Below, one piece after another: positions 16,622 through 44,490 of a stretch of DNA of 64,000 nucleotides. A program made the position numbers and the translations under genes. A model generated the notes under the pieces. The model was not told the origin of the DNA. It saw only the letters and a list, made by a program, of their open reading frames with translations, and ran no database searches. The stretch lies in IMG/VR virus record IMGVR_UViG_3300017722_005389. The stretch is one strand, 5' to 3'. Each line of letters opens with the position of its first letter. The first letter of the stretch is position 1. This stretch comes from a virus (lineage: Duplodnaviria > Caudoviricetes).

Positions 16622-17503
16622 ATGGAAACCACAAATCTCGGTAATCAATTTGATACACTTCTTGGTGATATCAGCAAAGAAACACGTTCAGACATGATCC
16701 AGATCGACATCAGAAACATTGATGTCAACTGGGAAGAAAATGTTCGTCAGATTTATAACAACATTGAAGCATTATCAGAATCCATCAAGGAGCATGGATT
16801 GAAAGAGCCTCTGAAGTTGTCTCGCATCAAAGGGACCGACAGGTATCTTTTGGTGGATGGTCACAGAAGATACAAAGCAATCATGTTTCTTTTGGAGCAG
16901 GGGGTTCCAGTTTCCAGGGTGAAAGCTATTCTTGTGAACAATTCCCCAGAAGTTCGTCTTTCAGAGATGATCATCACAGGAGTTCAAAAGCAACCTTTGC
17001 ATCCTGTAGAACAAGCTGAAGCTTTCTTAAGACTGCAGAAATATGGATGGGATGTTAAGAAGATTGCATCTATGCTTTCTGAAGATGGCAAAAACAGGAC
17101 GAACCTTGTATACCGCTACTTGAAACTTGCCAATGCTCCTGAAGCGATCAAACAGAGATGTTTGAAGGGTGAGATTTCCCACGACACTGTTATCAAAATT
17201 ATTGAGGATACTGGAGCCGATTATGAAAAGGTTGTGGAGACAGTTGAAGATGCTGTTGCTGCCAACACCATTGTCACAGAGACTGGTGAGAAGGTCGTGA
17301 AGAAAGTTAAAACTCGTCAAGTGGAAGCTATTGTAAAACCAAAGAAAGCTGGTTTTATGGAGAAGCTCCGTTTGGCTTCTGATGAATTCTTCAACGAAGG
17401 AGAAGAAAACGACATCCTGGAGGAATTCATCAAGCTGGATAACACTGAAGCTTCTACAGAAGATATCAAAGCGTTCTTTAGAAATATTACTAGGAAATCC
17501 TAA
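16622..17503 (+). CDS. parB: ParB/Spo0J-like protein (ParB N-domain plus HTH)
   Basis: LSESIKEHGLKEPL, LVDGHRRYKA, LHPVEQAEAF, HTH-like segment with VYRYLKL. Confidence 0.85.
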   Translation: METTNLGNQFDTLLGDISKETRSDMIQIDIRNIDVNWEENVRQIYNNIEALSESIKEHGLKEPLKLSRIKGTDRYLLVDGHRRYKAIMFLLEQGVPVSRVKAILVNNSPEVRLSEMIITGVQKQPLHPVEQAEAFLRLQKYGWDVKKIASMLSEDGKNRTNLVYRYLKLANAPEAIKQRCLKGEISHDTVIKIIEDTGADYEKVVETVEDAVAANTIVTETGEKVVKKVKTRQVEAIVKPKKAGFMEKLRLASDEFFNEGEENDILEEFIKLDNTEASTEDIKAFFRNITRKS

Positions 17504-33844: not shown

Positions 33845-34165
33845 TAAAATATTTTTTGTAGTCGTAACTACCTTTGCAAATATCTTGAGACAAAGATATA
33901 ACAAGTTTTTCAAATAAAAAAATTTATTTTTACCTCAAAAGAACTTTTTTAATTTCCAAATTTTTTAACAATTTTAACTAAAAAAAATTCTGGCATTGTA
34001 ATATACGAAAACACGCTGGCAACGAAATATACGAAGATTTCAATCTGTTGCAGGTCTGGATTAATCCTACCTTCGAACTTCGTCTCAGAGATATGCACTA
34101 TCAATTAGCTGTTACAAAAGTATGCATAATAGCTGGCATTACAAAATATTTTTAGTTAAATTTTT
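33845..34165. repeat. ~300-bp regulatory module copy 1 (upstream of GP88-like gene)
   Basis: Colinear near-identity with 38855-39215. Confidence 0.85.
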
Positions 34166-37787: not shown

Positions 37788-38771
37788 TTATTCTGCTTCT
37801 GCTTCGGTTGGTTCAACTGCTGTTGCCAATGAACGTCCAAGTATCAGTTCAACTGCTTTTTTTGCCTCGTTGACTGCCTTGAATATCCACTTAGGCTCAC
37901 TTTCAAGTTTCGATATCCAACCGTTCAGATATGCTTGAGAGTTTTGAACGTTCATTTGGATGCCTGACAACTCGCAAAGCATTCCTGCGCCTATTTCGGC
38001 TATCAGTTCTTCATAGCTGTACTGATGACTACCAAAGCGGTCAAATTGCGCTACACCTTGTCGGTTCAATTTGTCCATGTTACCAGTGCTATGCACCAAT
38101 TCATGGAATAGGGTTTGATAGTAAGCATCGGAACTTACAAATTGTCCAATACTCGGCATATACAATATGTTAAATTGTGGGCTGTATGCAGCACTATTCG
38201 ATTCAATGATTTTGGGGCAATTTGCATAGCCTTTCAAGATGCTTTCGCCATTGTCCAAAATTGGGTTGTTTTTCGCTTCGGGAATGTACTTAGACATATC
38301 CCAATTTAAATGGTCTATTGAAAATACCACAAACCCTTTTACAGTTGGAAAACTGTATGTCTTTTTTTCGCCATTGCTGTCCAAGATAGGATTGCCATTG
38401 GCATCTTTGCATTCCTTTGTTATCGGTGTTACTCGAATAAGGTGCAGACCTTTCGCACCCTTTTTAATTGGGAAAGGTACAGCAGCACCTTTGCTATCGA
38501 CATAACCGTTACCTTGCTTTTTGTAGCCAAGCTTTTTTGCAGCACCTGCAACTGTAGCATAGTGCGCTTGAACGCCATACATAGATGCATGGAGATTCGC
38601 CCAAAATGCATTTGAACCTGTGTATACGCTGTCATAAGCTACATTGCCTACAATAGATGTTATCCAAGGCTTTTGCCATCCGACAATCCCTTGTTTCAAA
38701 CCGTTAATGAATAGTTCTGTAATCTTAGCTTCAACAGAAGCTTCGACATTAGCATTTTTAGTGTACGCCAT
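37788..38771 (-). CDS. ardC: ArdC-like antirestriction protein (ssDNA-binding domain plus zincin domain)
   Basis: WQKPW, YTGSNA, YYQTLFHELVHSTG, YSYEELIAEIGA, YLNGW. Confidence 0.9.
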   Translation of the reverse strand: MAYTKNANVEASVEAKITELFINGLKQGIVGWQKPWITSIVGNVAYDSVYTGSNAFWANLHASMYGVQAHYATVAGAAKKLGYKKQGNGYVDSKGAAVPFPIKKGAKGLHLIRVTPITKECKDANGNPILDSNGEKKTYSFPTVKGFVVFSIDHLNWDMSKYIPEAKNNPILDNGESILKGYANCPKIIESNSAAYSPQFNILYMPSIGQFVSSDAYYQTLFHELVHSTGNMDKLNRQGVAQFDRFGSHQYSYEELIAEIGAGMLCELSGIQMNVQNSQAYLNGWISKLESEPKWIFKAVNEAKKAVELILGRSLATAVEPTEAEAE

Positions 38772-38854: not shown

Positions 38855-39215
38855 AAATATTTTTTGTAGCCGTAACTACCTTTGCAAATATCTTGAGACA
38901 AAGATATAACAAGTTTTTTAATTATTCAAATTTATTTTTACCTCAAAAGAACTTTTTTAAATTCCAAATTTTTTAACAATTTTAACTAAAAAAAATTCTG
39001 GCATTGTAATATACAACATATACGACAAATTGTATAATATACGACGTATACGACAAATTGTAATATACGAGATATACGACAGATTATATAATATACGAAG
39101 ATTTCAATCTGAGGTAGGTTTGGATTAATCCTACCTTCGAATTTACTCTCAGAGATATGCTCTATCAATTAGCTATACAAAGGTATGCATAATAGTTGAC
39201 ATTTCAAAATTATTT
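38855..39215. repeat. ~300-bp regulatory module copy 2 (upstream of ardC) with expanded ATATACG array
   Basis: Matches 33845-34165; about 7 TATACG-type motifs at 39005-39100. Confidence 0.85.
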
Positions 39216-39517
39216 CAAAAGAAAATTTAAAATATTTTCAAAATAAAATGATCAAAAAATTTGGATATATCAAATTTCCGCCTGTGCCATTTTCTCTCAA
39301 AAGATGACTCTATATATCAAAAGAAAATAAAGTTTCTTCTGAGGGCAAATCTGAGCGTTCTGAGGGGTAAATCTGAGGCTATCTTAGGGTAAATCTGAGG
39401 CTATCTGAATCTAAACTGATAGCCAGATTTTGATATACGACATATACGACATATACGAAAAATTGATAGCCAGATTTTGATATACGACAAACTGATATAA
39501 GCATAAAAAAAAGTCCC

Positions 39518-39760
39518 TTATAGGGACTCAAATTCAGAAGGGGTTATACTATAAGCTTCAGGTGAATACCATCCTGCTGTAACGTAATTCCAATTGTAAT
39601 TTTTAGTTTTTGCGTCAGTATGAATATGTATGCTACCATATTTATTTATTCCGTTAAATATGGCATTAGTGCATTTTACATCTGAGCAATAATAATTACC
39701 CTCTTTTTTAATGCTTTCTACATTAACTCTTTGCCCGATTTTAAAATTTGTGTGTTCCAT
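39518..39760 (-). CDS. Hypothetical protein (repeat-array cassette 1)
   Basis: 80-aa ORF. Confidence 0.75.
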   Translation of the reverse strand: MEHTNFKIGQRVNVESIKKEGNYYCSDVKCTNAIFNGINKYGSIHIHTDAKTKNYNWNYVTAGWYSPEAYSITPSEFESL

Positions 39761-40104
39761 AAGAAGTAAATTTAATAGTGATAAATAATTGACCTTACAA
39801 AAGTATACTTTATCTTGATATTATTATAACTTTTTTTACTTTATTTTCAAAAATAAAAAATTTAACTAAATTTATTTGGAAATATCAAATCTCCATTCTG
39901 GGGCATTATTTTTCAAAAGTCAACATAGTGTCCAACTGATGACATAAAATGGCTCAAAACCCGGTTTTTGTGGCTTCTGAAGGCATCTGAACGTTCTGAA
40001 TGCATCTGATAACCCCGATGAATGATATACTAAAAAATTACCTATAGGCAATAAAAAAACCCCGAAAGGGGTTTTTGTTCATTGTGTAAAGTTTTTTATA
40101 AATT

Positions 40105-40344
40105 TTATAGTTCAATTAAAATTGTTTTTCCAACTTCAAACAAATGCTCAAAGCCTTTTTTGTCCATGTCGGTATAAACACCGCAATGAAATGTACTGCC
40201 TAATCCGTTACGGCAAATCATAGTGCCGTAGATTATTTTAGAATCTGCACTTACTTCGATGTGAGTTTCTTGTAAGTTTTTAGATTCTTCTGTATCCCAA
40301 TACTGAGCTAATAAAGCTAATTTTAAATCATTGATAGTTTTCAT
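40105..40344 (-). CDS. Hypothetical protein (cassette 2)
   Basis: 79-aa ORF. Confidence 0.75.
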   Translation of the reverse strand: MKTINDLKLALLAQYWDTEESKNLQETHIEVSADSKIIYGTMICRNGLGSTFHCGVYTDMDKKGFEHLFEVGKTILIEL

Positions 40345-40675
40345 TGAATAGTAGTGTTTAAAGTGAATTAAATAATTTACCTTACAAAGGTATACTTTGT
40401 TTTTATATTATTATAATTTTTTTTGCTTTATTTTCAAAAATAAAAAATTTAACTAAATTTATTTTGAAATATCAAATTTCGATTCTGGGGCATTGTTTTT
40501 CCTTAGAAGGTATAAGATGTCCAAATGTCAATAAAATGCTCTCTGAGGGCAAATCTGAGTGTTCTGAATGCATCTGAACGTTCTAATGACATCTGATAAC
40601 CCCAATAAATGATATACTAAAAAATTACCTATAGGCAATAAAAAAACCCCTTTCGGGGTTTCTGTTTTGATAAAT

Positions 40676-41002
40676 TTAATCGTTTTTGAAGATTTTAGAA
40701 AATAATTGGTCAATACCAAATCCTAATACTTGATGTTTTGTACCATTCATTTCAAAATGACATTCAATCTCGATGCCATATATTGTTTTACCTGTACCCA
40801 CACAAACTAATGTATCGCCAAAATCTGCTTTATTTGGAAGATACAATTCATAGCTTTGACTACCATAATAGCCATCGTGATAGGTGTACCCACCCCCACC
40901 AGTTGATAGGGCTAATACTTGCTGGCTGTTACGAATTTTAATTTTTGTTCCATAGTAATTGATATAATAATCAACAGATTTTAAAGATTTTTGCGTTGTC
41001 AT
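40676..41002 (-). CDS. Hypothetical protein (cassette 3)
   Basis: 108-aa ORF. Confidence 0.8.
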   Translation of the reverse strand: MTTQKSLKSVDYYINYYGTKIKIRNSQQVLALSTGGGGYTYHDGYYGSQSYELYLPNKADFGDTLVCVGTGKTIYGIEIECHFEMNGTKHQVLGFGIDQLFSKIFKND

Positions 41003-41319
41003 AATAGTAGTGTTTAAAGTGAATTAAATTATTGACCTTACAAAGGTATACTTTGTTTTTATATTATTATAACTTTTTTTACTTTATTTTCAAAAATAAA
41101 AATTTTAACTAAATTTATTTGGAAATATCAAATTTCGATTCTGGGGCATTATTTTTCTTCAGAAGGTATAAGATGTCCAAATGCCAATAAAATGCTTTCT
41201 GAGGGCAAATCTGAACGTTCTGAAGGCATCTGAACGTTCTGAAGGTATCTGATAACCCCGATGAATGATATACGACAATTTGATATAGGGACAAAAAAAA
41301 TCCCCTTTCGGGGACTTTT

Positions 41320-41619
41320 TTAAAAAAAAGAAATTTCAATTTCTTTTTTTTGTGTTATTAACTCATATCGGCTCTCGCCAACATATTTGCGAGAAACGAT
41401 ATGTTTATTTTTTTGTATGTAAAATGTTCCCTTTATAATTAATACATCGCCCTTTGGCGATGCTTTCCAATGGATAATGTCAGTTACAGTTACTGACACC
41501 ATTGTTATTTGCCTATTATAAGTTATAGGTACAATAATTCTGTCACCTATGGTGTTTGGGCAATAATCGTACGTTAAGTTAGTTAGGCAGTTGTTTCTAA
41601 CAATTGTTACCTTTTTCAT
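41320..41619 (-). CDS. Hypothetical protein (cassette 4)
   Basis: 99-aa ORF. Confidence 0.75.
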   Translation of the reverse strand: MKKVTIVRNNCLTNLTYDYCPNTIGDRIIVPITYNRQITMVSVTVTDIIHWKASPKGDVLIIKGTFYIQKNKHIVSRKYVGESRYELITQKKEIEISFF

Positions 41620-41956
41620 AATAGTAGTGTTTAAAGTGAATTAAATTAATGACCTTACAAAGGTATACTTTATCTTGATATTATTATAATTTTTTTTGCT
41701 TTATTTTCAAAAATAAAAAATTTAACTAAATTTATTTGGAAATATCAAATCTCCATTCTGGGGCATTATTTTTCTTTAGAAGGTATATGACATCCAAAAG
41801 ATAATAAAATGCACTCAGAGGGCAAATCTGAGTGTTCTGAATGCATCTGAGTGTTCTGAATGCATCTGAGTGTTCTGAATGCATCGGATAACCCCAATAA
41901 ATGATATACTAAAAAATTACCTATAGGCAATAAAAAAACCCCTTTCGGGGTTTCTG

Positions 41957-42286
41957 TTATATTGCCCAAACACCACCGCAACCACAATTAGATTCTTCGG
42001 GTTCTTTGCGATTCCCACAATCGCAGTATATCAAATCTTCGTAGGCTTTTTCAGCCTCGAATAATGCACTTTCGGTGGCATAGCCTTTGCGAGAATAACC
42101 ATCCCAACCTTTGAGTTTAGAACTCAATTGCGAGAGGTTTTTTTCCGCTTGTTGCAACTTTGTAAGTTGCGTTGGTTGTGTTGGCATTTTGAACCAATCC
42201 TGCTTTAGCAACCAATCCTGATACCATTTAGGGGTATTAGAAAAATTTTCGCCTTTGTACTTTCCGAATTTAAGAATGAAGTTCAT
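41957..42286 (-). CDS. DUF3820-like N-terminus plus Cys-rich tail (cassette 5)
   Basis: LKFGKYKG....TPKWY.DWL; CDCG..CGCG. Confidence 0.7.
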   Translation of the reverse strand: MNFILKFGKYKGENFSNTPKWYQDWLLKQDWFKMPTQPTQLTKLQQAEKNLSQLSSKLKGWDGYSRKGYATESALFEAEKAYEDLIYCDCGNRKEPEESNCGCGGVWAI

Positions 42287-42628
42287 AATAGTAGTGTTTA
42301 AAGTGAATTAAATTAATGACCTTACAAAGATATACTTTGTTTTTATATTATTATAATTTTTTCTACTTTATTTTCAAAAATAAAAAATTTAACTAAATTT
42401 ATTTGGAAATATCAAATTTCGATTCTGGAGCATTGTTTTTCCTTAGAAGGTATAAGATGTCCAAATGCCAATAAAATGCTTTCTGAGGGCAAATCTGAGC
42501 GTTCTGTAGGCATCTGAGTGTAAATCTGTCCGACATTCAATTGCCCGATAGATAATATGCTACATTGCTTTATGGTATACTAAAAAATGTCCAATGGGCA
42601 AAAAAAAAGCCCCTTTCGGGGCTGTTGG

Positions 42629-43282
42629 TTATTCGTTTACTACAATGGTTTCACCCATTGCTTTCAGCGTATGTATCGCTGAAACTTTGAATTGGCGGAA
42701 TTTACCGCTTTTCATTTTAGACCTTAATATGTCTTTCGCTTTAGTTAATGCATACCTTGTGTCGGTTTTTTCAGTTTCGCTTTCGGTGACTACAACTTTG
42801 TCCCGAACTTGAAACCCGAACACAAAATATTCGTTTGTTGTCGGGTTGAACTTGAACCCATTGTCCAAGATTTCATAGGCAGATTTTTGCCCTTTGCTTC
42901 TGTTGTAGGCTGTTTGAACATCTTTAGCAGTGCAGTTTATGTCAGCTTTAGTGCCAATTCCCGAAAGGAATTGAACAACCAATCCTGCAATATGCGTGAA
43001 ATCTGCATCCGCTTTAAAATGGCGCAAATAATCAGCAATTTTGAATGCTTTTAATAGCTCAACACGAGCCGTTTCAAGCAGCATATCTTTGTCGCTGAAA
43101 TTTAGCGACATAAGATAATTGAAATCGTCAGATTTAGCCTTTTCAAGGCTGTAACCGACATTTATCAGTTGGTTTTGAACTTCGCCAAGTTCATTTGTGT
43201 AGCCATTGATAGCTACAAAACTTGTACCTTTAATTTGGCTTAGTGTAGCCTTAACAGTTTCAAAAGACATTACATTTGTCAT
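42629..43282 (-). CDS. Hypothetical protein (cassette 6), paralog of 26864..27367
   Basis: Shared motifs with 26864. Confidence 0.85.
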   Translation of the reverse strand: MTNVMSFETVKATLSQIKGTSFVAINGYTNELGEVQNQLINVGYSLEKAKSDDFNYLMSLNFSDKDMLLETARVELLKAFKIADYLRHFKADADFTHIAGLVVQFLSGIGTKADINCTAKDVQTAYNRSKGQKSAYEILDNGFKFNPTTNEYFVFGFQVRDKVVVTESETEKTDTRYALTKAKDILRSKMKSGKFRQFKVSAIHTLKAMGETIVVNE

Positions 43283-43545
43283 AATAGTAGTGTTTAAAGT
43301 GAATTAAATAATTGACCTTACAAAGGTCTTATTTTATTTTATATTATTATAATTTTTTCTACTTTATTTTCAAAAATAAAAAATTTAACATAAAAAATTT
43401 GGAAATATCAAATTTCGATTCTGAAGCGTTATTTTTCAAAAGTCAACATAGTGTCCAACTAATGACATAAAATGGCTCAAAACCCGGTTTTTGTGGCTTC
43501 TGAAGGCATATAAGGTTCTTTAGAAAATCAATATTTTTTCTTTAG

Positions 43546-43825
43546 AAGGTGTCCGATATACTAAAGTTTTATTATATACGAATGTGTCCAATGTACGTTG
43601 TATACGTTATATACGAATGTGTCCAATGTACGCTGTATACGTTATATGCGAATGTGTCCAATGTACGCTGTATACGTTATATACGAAGGTGTCCGATATA
43701 CTAAAGTTTTATTATATACGAATGTGTCCAATGTACGTTGTATACGTTATATACGAATGTGTCCAATGTACGCTGTATACGTTATATACGAATGTGTCCA
43801 ATGTACGTTGTATACGTTATATACA
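43546..43825. repeat. Eight 35-bp tandem units in a BAAA-BAAA higher-order arrangement
   Basis: A = aatgtgtccaatgtacg(t/c)tgtatacgttatatacg; B = aaggtgtccgatatactaaagttttattatatacg. Confidence 0.95.
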
Positions 43826-44225
43826 CAGCTACCTACTATATACGACATATACGCAAGTATGTACAATATACGTTATATACGAAAATTTGCCCATACCATA
43901 TACAAGATATACAACAACACCTACCATATACGTCATATACGCAGTACCTACTATATACGTTATATACGTAAGTACCTACTATATACGTCATATACGCAGT
44001 ACCTACCATATACGTTATATACGACAGTACCTACTATATACGTTATATACGAAGCCCCTACCATATACGTTATATACGCAGTACCTACCATATATAACAT
44101 ATACGAAAGTATAGCCCTACCATATACGAAAATATACCCCTACCATATACGAAAATACCCCTCCCCTCCATATACGACATCTCCCCCTACCCATATACGA
44201 AACCCCCCTCCTGACCTGTATACGA
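43826..44225. repeat. Degenerate ~27-29 bp array of cctac(c/t)atatacgttatatacg grading into C-run repeats
   Basis: Direct reading; paired ATATACG 9 nt apart. Confidence 0.9.
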
Positions 44226-44284
44226 AATCTGGTCATGGATCAGCCGACCTGCTAAAAAAATTTTTTTCAAAATTTTCAAATTCC

Positions 44285-44440
44285 CCAAAGAAAGCAATCT
44301 TATCTTCCAAAGAAAGCAATCTTATCTTCCAAAGAAAGCAATCCTATCTTCCAAAGAAATTAAAATGTTTCCAAAGAAAGCAAAATGTTTCCAAAGAAAG
44401 TAAAATGTTTCCAAAGAAAGTAAAATGTTTCCAAAGAAAT
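44285..44440. repeat. ccaaagaaa 22-bp (x3) and 20-bp (x4-5) tandem repeats
   Basis: Direct reading. Confidence 0.9.
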
Positions 44441-44490
44441 TAATCATATTGTCGCAAAAATGTACAATATTTGCGACAGATAAAAACCTG

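Follow-up and report, generated by a model that had tools for sequence, protein, structure and literature searches.

Why should a phage genome place one long, conserved repeat between small genes that have nothing in common with one another? The question is raised by a 64,000-nt stretch of virus DNA, referred to below as the window (IMG/VR record IMGVR_UViG_3300017722_005389; G+C ~30%); in its interval from 39.2 to 43.5 kb such repeats and genes alternate up to a gene for an ArdC-type anti-restriction protein. We found that the window carries shuffled promoter-terminator gene cassettes, and that these belong to a ~271-kb uncultured freshwater phage. With a probability that we put at roughly 0.7, the array is a set of monocistronic early-gene cassettes that represents an enlarged, Bacteroidota-phage form of the promoter-early stem-loop (PeSL) cassettes, the cargo being swapped by homologous recombination.

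A repeat search of the window revealed one repeat family with six 300-nt copies, at 39760, 40347, 41003, 41620, 42287 and 43283, which are 64-89% identical to the reference copy. The full repeats are direct, 317-344 nt long, and alternate with six minus-strand genes, after which the ArdC gene follows. A profile built from the copies matched all six array places (E 1.7e-62 to 2.1e-99) and identified a seventh, degenerate copy at 39233-39528 (E 1.4e-19), upstream of the ArdC gene. The cargo open reading frames (ORFs), all on the minus strand, encode 217, 109, 99, 108, 79 and 80 aa in the order from the neighbouring repeat locus to ArdC, and no similarity was detectable among the six proteins when all were compared with one another. 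The alternating array of repeats and genes is real and far beyond chance. A first-pass annotation, made from the letters of the window, had described six direct repeats of ~260-340 bp with six unrelated genes of 79-217 aa, which repeat search, profile and ORF comparison confirmed; it had also placed the array beside a repeat locus at 43.5 kb, and the array indeed abuts a ~0.9-kb tandem-repeat locus at 43545-44470. A CRISPR array was ruled out, because the repeats are ~320 nt long and 64-89% identical, not identical and ~24-48 nt long, and the 'spacers' are complete ORFs. The coordinates of all features are collected in Table 1.

Table 1. Repeat units, cargo genes and flanking features of the array (positions in the window)
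Feature	Position	Strand	Description
Unit 1	43283..43545	-	slot-1 type, middle block A, upstream of the 217-aa gene; lacks a terminator part of its own; abuts the tandem-repeat locus
Cargo 1	42629..43282	-	217-aa ORFan, 'alpha' family
Unit 2	42287..42628	-	slot-2 type, block B, 20-nt insert
Cargo 2	41957..42286	-	109-aa DUF3820-like protein
Unit 3	41620..41956	-	block B variant with one additional 19-nt TCAGA double repeat
Cargo 3	41320..41619	-	99-aa ORFan
Unit 4	41003..41319	-	block B
Cargo 4	40676..41002	-	108-aa ORFan
Unit 5	40345..40675	-	block B
Cargo 5	40105..40344	-	79-aa ORFan
Unit 6	39761..40104	-	last-slot type, block A, inverted hairpin loop
Cargo 6	39518..39760	-	80-aa ORFan
Seventh degenerate unit	39180..39517	-	terminator, GTCGTATAT repeats, 22-nt TCAGA-type repeats, then canonical TTTG-N19-TAccTTTG promoter
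ArdC-type anti-restriction gene	37788..38771	-	ArdcN and zincin peptidase domains (Pfam); own TTTG-N19-TAttTTTG promoter
Tandem-repeat locus	43545..44470		35-nt, 27/28-nt, 22-nt and 20-nt repeats at the strand switch; upstream bound of the array

Look-ups of exact protein matches located the window in freshwater metagenomes and on a contig of 271,154 bp (k141_1631700), one end of which carries the genes of 217, 109, 99, 108 and 79 aa, while its start carries the 80-aa gene and ArdC. The two contig ends hold the two halves of the array and meet within the unit that separates the 79-aa gene from the 80-aa gene, which shows that the assembly closes as a circle and broke in a repeat unit.

Read in the direction of the genes, the units share one order of elements: a hairpin terminator, a GTATA box, TCAGA repeats, a middle block, two TAnnTTTG boxes and a leader that runs to the ATG. 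The GC hairpin with its T-run, found at the 5' end of units 2-7 with a stem of 5-9 bp, starts 0-38 nt past the preceding stop codon, and the stop codon of the 80-aa gene lies inside the hairpin loop. The TCAGA motifs number four to six per unit and are spaced 9-10 nt apart. The middle block of ~60 nt has two unrelated forms, A in the first and last units and B in the four middle units and the seventh copy. That the units are mosaics, with one middle block common to 39761 and 43283 and another to 40345, 41003 and 42287, had already been noticed in the first-pass annotation, and we found the second block also at 41620 and in the seventh copy. A stretch of ~110 nt that hardly varies among the copies holds the two TAnnTTTG boxes, 50 nt apart. 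The leader, ~34 nt long and devoid of a Shine-Dalgarno sequence, runs to the ATG, and 19 nt of it are identical in five units. Within a unit, hairpin and promoter are separated by ~200 nt. The genes span the interval from leader to terminator, as had been claimed, every ATG standing directly after the shared leader. The earlier remark that the repeats are larger than a promoter needs was fair; tandem promoters and phased TCAGA repeats explain the excess only in part.

The possibility that the unit encodes a structured RNA was rejected, as the covariation found by RNAalifold in 14 units from six genomes (covariation term -0.99) was essentially limited to the terminator hairpin. Since compensatory changes were essentially confined to the hairpin stem and Rfam returned only sub-threshold matches for the unit, the hairpin is the conserved structure and the remainder acts as DNA sequence. 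The hairpin before unit 6 (40055-40076) has an inverted loop, TTCG-type on the gene strand where the others are GAAA-type, on an unchanged stem.

TAnnTTTG is the -7 box of sigma-A promoters in flavobacteria (PMC9723704), and Shine-Dalgarno sequences are absent from the mRNAs of Bacteroidetes (PMC6847099). Window-wide, the motif shows a peak 40-49 nt upstream of ATGs, and it is present 33-65 nt upstream of 21 of the 112 window genes, against ~4 expected. Almost all of these genes belong to the minus-strand block of small genes at 21-43 kb. The full form, TTTG-N17-23-TAnnTTTG, was found at 15 sites in the 21-39 kb block, including one before ArdC and one in the seventh unit. The host is probably a member of the Bacteroidota. 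A different box, TATTTATA, precedes 16 ORF starts between positions 164 and 61287, at a distance of 13-47 nt (mostly 13-22), on both strands and mostly before large ORFs, and is absent from the array. It resembles TATAAATA, the late-promoter consensus of T4. As TATTTATA stands before most large genes on both sides of the small-gene block, it points to a second, late-type promoter class; from the promoter motifs we infer that the array belongs to the early class. Between 20165 and 36187, the small minus-strand genes are separated by 14-16 shorter repeats (~55-140 nt) of hairpin, promoter box and leader, which are of classical PeSL size.

PeSLs are compact elements in which the stem-loop lies just upstream of the promoter. 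They consist of a stem-loop terminator, an early promoter and a leader, and in T4-type phages they separate the ORFans of the hyperplastic regions (Arbiol 2010, PMC2839356; Comeau 2014, PMC4122927). They bound insertions, deletions, replacements and displacements between close relatives, and inverse PCR has demonstrated that they recombine into mini-circles, the crossover points lying between -10 element and ATG (PMC2839356; PMC4122927). The array has the same composite repeat, made up of stem-loop terminator, predicted promoter and leader to the ATG. It has the same clustering among small ORFans, with seven long units at 39.2-43.5 kb and the 14-16 shorter repeats at 20-37 kb, and the same element-bounded indels, replacements and displacements, with eight different arrangements in relatives and heterology from ATG to stop. 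Its units, however, measure ~320 nt, about five times the PeSL size, with a gap of ~200 nt between hairpin and promoter; they have two tandem TAnnTTTG boxes of the Bacteroidota type and no Shine-Dalgarno sequence, and phased TCAGA repeats and a dimorphic middle block have been added.

We propose that the hairpin terminator of each unit would stop transcription of the preceding gene, that the TCAGA repeats (one every 9-10 nt) and the dimorphic block are probable regulator-binding repeats, and that the two tandem host-type promoters would restart transcription, the unit supplying the ~34-nt Shine-Dalgarno-free leader up to the ATG. Every ORF is surrounded by 250-340 nt of near-identical DNA, so that homologous recombination between units can delete, duplicate, reorder or replace whole ORFs and leave their expression intact. 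Such exchange may take place within one genome or between co-infecting relatives. The cassettes would sit in an early, hyperplastic region, and their cargo would be co-expressed with the neighbouring ArdC gene.

Relatives of the phage were recovered from other metagenomes using DNA-pattern scans and protein look-ups; an ArdC-anchored search of IMG/VR added no further contig, a DNA search with the region gave no match in phage and plasmid collections, and no cultured phage close to this one was found. The flanks of the relatives are 83-93% identical in DNA and their ArdC proteins 84-92% identical, the ArdC-type gene being a conserved anchor downstream of the array in all of them. Their arrangements are given in Table 2.

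Table 2. Cargo arrangements in the window and its relatives, read from the tandem-repeat locus to ArdC (D, DUF3820-like gene; S65, 62-65-aa gene; alpha and beta, the two slot-1 forms; L numbers, contigs of relatives)
Source	Arrangement
Window	alpha217 / D109 / 99 / 108 / 79 / 80
L019/L020	beta203 / D106 / S65
L013/14/15	alpha216 / S62+71
L016/17	60+alpha214 / 94
L008	beta203 / 94
L012	beta203 / 85 / 34-codon membrane mini-gene + 76 (homologue of the 80-aa gene)
L037/38 and one contig without DNA	60+alpha214 / S65 / D96
L039	alpha218 / D109 / 66 / S65+92
L011	241-aa gene between two units

At least 16 cargo families were observed, in arrays of 2 to 6 units. D and S65 occur in both orders, and both 94 and D are found in combination with alpha as well as with beta. 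Where two relatives differ, heterology begins within a few bases of the ATG, and similarity is back at the stop codon or at the hairpin. Most arrangements were recovered from two or three assemblies made independently of one another, which speaks against chimeric assembly. The proposal of a gene-shuffling array is borne out by these data, since the same units, between flanks that are 83-93% identical, hold other cargo in other numbers and another order; the opposite outcome, gene content and order invariant among relatives, was not found.

The units themselves cluster by slot across genomes, independent of the cargo. The window unit before alpha and the slot-1 unit that precedes beta in L012 are 96.8% identical. 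Slot-2 units form one clade though they precede D, 94, 85 or S62, and the 20-nt insert of unit 2 is common to the slot-2 units of L008, L012, L019 and L009. Unit 6 of the window has 90.8% identity with the unit that lies upstream of the 76-aa homologue in L012, and the unit that follows beta in L009 has 97.9% identity with the one that follows alpha in the window. Over ~250 nt, no mismatch separates the L008 unit before 94 from the L012 unit before 85, but the L008 unit has the leader of the L016 unit, which also precedes 94. Among the six window units, 668 of the 1485 informative site pairs failed the four-gamete test. Breakpoints, as judged from the few unit pairs examined, lie at several positions, which fits homologous exchange and not a site-specific crossover.

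This distribution of breakpoints bears on the integron analogy made in the first-pass annotation. Taken as a mechanism, the analogy would require that a site-specific recombinase encoded elsewhere in the genome moves ORF cassettes at a fixed site in each unit. The repeat-gene-repeat layout with unrelated cargo resembles that of an integron, and the array shares with integrons a tandem series of unrelated small genes between repeats, whose cargo is variable among relatives. We nevertheless give this mechanism hardly any chance. A Pfam scan of 40 ORFs of the 64-kb window found no recombinase domain, in line with the earlier statement that none was to be seen there. The sole palindrome is the 5-9-bp hairpin of an intrinsic terminator, with no attC-like imperfect palindrome; the repeats are composed of terminator, promoter and leader, so that each cassette has its own promoter; and the breakpoints are found at several sites rather than one. 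Nor is acquisition polarised, as conservation is highest in the slot next to the repeat locus, which keeps the same gene family across the relatives compared. An integron has IntI, attC sites, promoterless cassettes read from Pc and a single crossover point, and the array differs from it on each. What holds of the analogy is the layout, not the mechanism, and no new recombination system is revealed by the array.

A second alternative takes the units as a shared regulatory module only: cargo differences would have arisen by generic illegitimate recombination and differential loss, and the repeats would play no special part in shuffling. It is consistent with the near invariance of the 110 nt before the ATG, which is retained even where the slot-1 proteins are only 68% identical and speaks for selection on function. 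It is also consistent with the stability of the array within the strain, and with the exchange of the 108-aa cargo with a phage that has no unit. In this last case a copy of the ORF alone, 87% identical in nucleotides, was found between unrelated flanks in L031 (2345-2685, corresponding to 40676-41010 of the window), a different phage contig from the same samples which is devoid of the repeat unit. It follows that ORFs move between phages with gene-exact borders, and that the unit is not needed on the donor side. The module explanation does not, however, account for the recombinant nature of the units, in which identical tracts are long and switches occur at more than one position, or for the same cargo standing behind different slot units in a different order. 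In addition, the 19-nt leader stretch is identical in five window units while the leaders of orthologous units differ elsewhere, which points to gene conversion within the genome. We therefore regard a purely regulatory role of the repeats as unlikely, though not negligibly so, and retain the view that they are also the substrate of homologous exchange.

The tandem-repeat locus next to unit 1 contains a 35-nt repeat in ~9 copies, a 27/28-nt repeat in ~10, a 22-nt repeat in 4 and a 20-nt repeat in 5. It is located where minus- and plus-strand genes diverge, at the minimum of the cumulative GC skew. Every unit, as well as the interval 39000-39100, also contains the GTATA and TTGGACA motifs of the locus, which may function as an origin or partition site, or as a regulator array. 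Units and tandem repeats might even form one DNA-protein platform (a replication origin, partition site or enhancer), on which a phage protein binds GTATA/TTGGACA and TCAGA and to which the genes are incidental. The clustering of 36 of the 47 CGTATAT copies of the window at 39.0-39.5 kb and 43.5-44.3 kb agrees with this, as do the single GTATA box after the terminator in every unit, the position of the locus at a strand switch and skew minimum, and a ParB-like gene at 16622-17503. The skew switch, however, coincides with the change in gene direction, the motif-binding protein is only hypothetical, and unit ends exactly at the ATG, terminators and promoters are left unexplained. Such a platform with bystander genes appears very improbable to us. 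A related proposal concerns the features that the units share with the locus, namely phased TCAGA repeats, dimorphic middle block and GTATA/TTGGACA boxes: bound by protein, they could make up a platform on which the cassettes are regulated together and their recombination is favoured. This we consider doubtful, with a small share of credence. If true, it would mean a dedicated 'expression and capture' locus of Bacteroidota jumbo phages, recombinase-independent or dependent on a novel factor, and an analogue of the integron in function that is built on homologous recombination.

Several points weigh against enlarged PeSL cassettes as the explanation of the array. In each unit ~150 nt (TCAGA repeats and middle block) go beyond the roles of terminator and promoter and exceed any described PeSL, and it is in these, along with the neighbouring tandem-repeat locus, that something new might still be found. 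Every unit also contains a sigma-70 pair close to the consensus, TTGAAA-16-TATAAT, and the transcription starts are motif predictions. PeSLs are known from T4-type phages, and the 64-kb window holds no T4 core gene. A function for the cargo is proposed from context, the proteins having no match in Pfam, PHROG, NCBIfam or among PDB sequences beyond a DUF3820 hint. Arrangements seen in a single assembly (L008, L012, L039, L011 and L009) could be chimeric across the repeats. The six-cassette order was identical in at least 8 assemblies from several samples, so turnover is seen between lineages and not within the strain. Recombination, finally, is read from comparison of sequences, and circles and deletion variants would be expected from it.

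As regards the cargo itself, slot 1, next to the tandem-repeat locus, is occupied in most relatives by the 217-aa alpha protein, which is elsewhere replaced by the ~203-aa beta form. The 217-aa protein has no match in Pfam, PHROG or NCBIfam, and an Atlas feature search was empty; its model, with a predicted local distance difference test (pLDDT) score of 66.8, matches no PDB fold and one uncharacterised viral structure. Alpha and beta can be aligned end to end with 21-28% identity (BLASTP E 4e-6 to 2e-3; hhalign E 7e-4, with a probability of only 26%), and are probably very distant homologues. Both are present in one metagenome, Ga0181349 (L009, L005, L029). The 109-aa protein has 87 homologues, several of them named DUF3820 by the Joint Genome Institute (JGI), and a weak match to PF12843, which hints at membership in the widespread DUF3820 group; homologues are found in slot 2 of L019 (84%) and, between other flanks, in an unrelated ERF-carrying phage contig, L021 (68%). 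The 99-aa ORFan has 6 library matches at E<=0.001, and the 80-aa ORFan has a 79% identical homologue of 76 aa in the last slot of L012. In two relatives, a hydrophobic mini-gene of 34 codons lies between the last unit and the 80-aa homologue (L012 2344-2448, L011 1361-1447); it starts with the same ATGGAACAC as the homologue gene and is absent from the window.

The cargo most likely comprises fast-turnover accessory genes for host takeover or anti-defence that would be co-expressed with ArdC, a role that we deduce solely from their place next to ArdC, their small size, their promoter class and their turnover. Clusters of anti-defence genes beside ArdC-type genes occur in the leading regions of plasmids and in early accessory loci of phages. 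The array shares with them small, fast-evolving, co-oriented genes next to an anti-restriction gene, and presumably early expression; it differs from them in its phage context (holin, late-type promoters, circular 271-kb contig) in place of a conjugative element, and in that no cargo matches a known anti-defence family. The idea of a plasmid leading region, suggested by ArdC, was rejected on account of holin, DHFR, the late-type promoters, PHROG phage families and a contig that closes at 271 kb; the phage markers in the window also include the ParB-like protein. A comparison can also be made with morons, which are accessory genes with their own promoter and terminator in lambdoid and other phages (Juhala/Hendrix). 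The cassettes are likewise autonomous transcription units with promoter and terminator, dispensable and variably present among relatives; morons, however, are usually single insertions with unrelated flanks, and here six stand in tandem with one standard 320-nt flank.

Until now, shuffling of the PeSL type has been on record from T4-type phages of Proteobacteria. The array has the same architecture, enlarged and with the promoter logic of Bacteroidota, in an uncultured freshwater jumbo phage. Combinatorial exchange of cargo is seen in its natural populations, with two alleles of the first gene, deeply diverged, present together in one lake sample; a cargo ORF has also been exchanged, with exact borders, with an unrelated phage that occurs alongside it. 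The units define where new genes for host takeover or anti-defence can be sought beside ArdC, and provide a ready expression context for genes of Bacteroidota phages.

Lastly, a non-coding element of ~90 nt was observed at 39085-39178 and again at 34020-34113, each time immediately after a promoter of the canonical form TTTG-N19-TAnnTTTG. The window, L008 and L016 each have two copies of the element, which is 88-99% conserved without covariation and is not a tRNA, ARAGORN having found none; it is a candidate small RNA or binding site.

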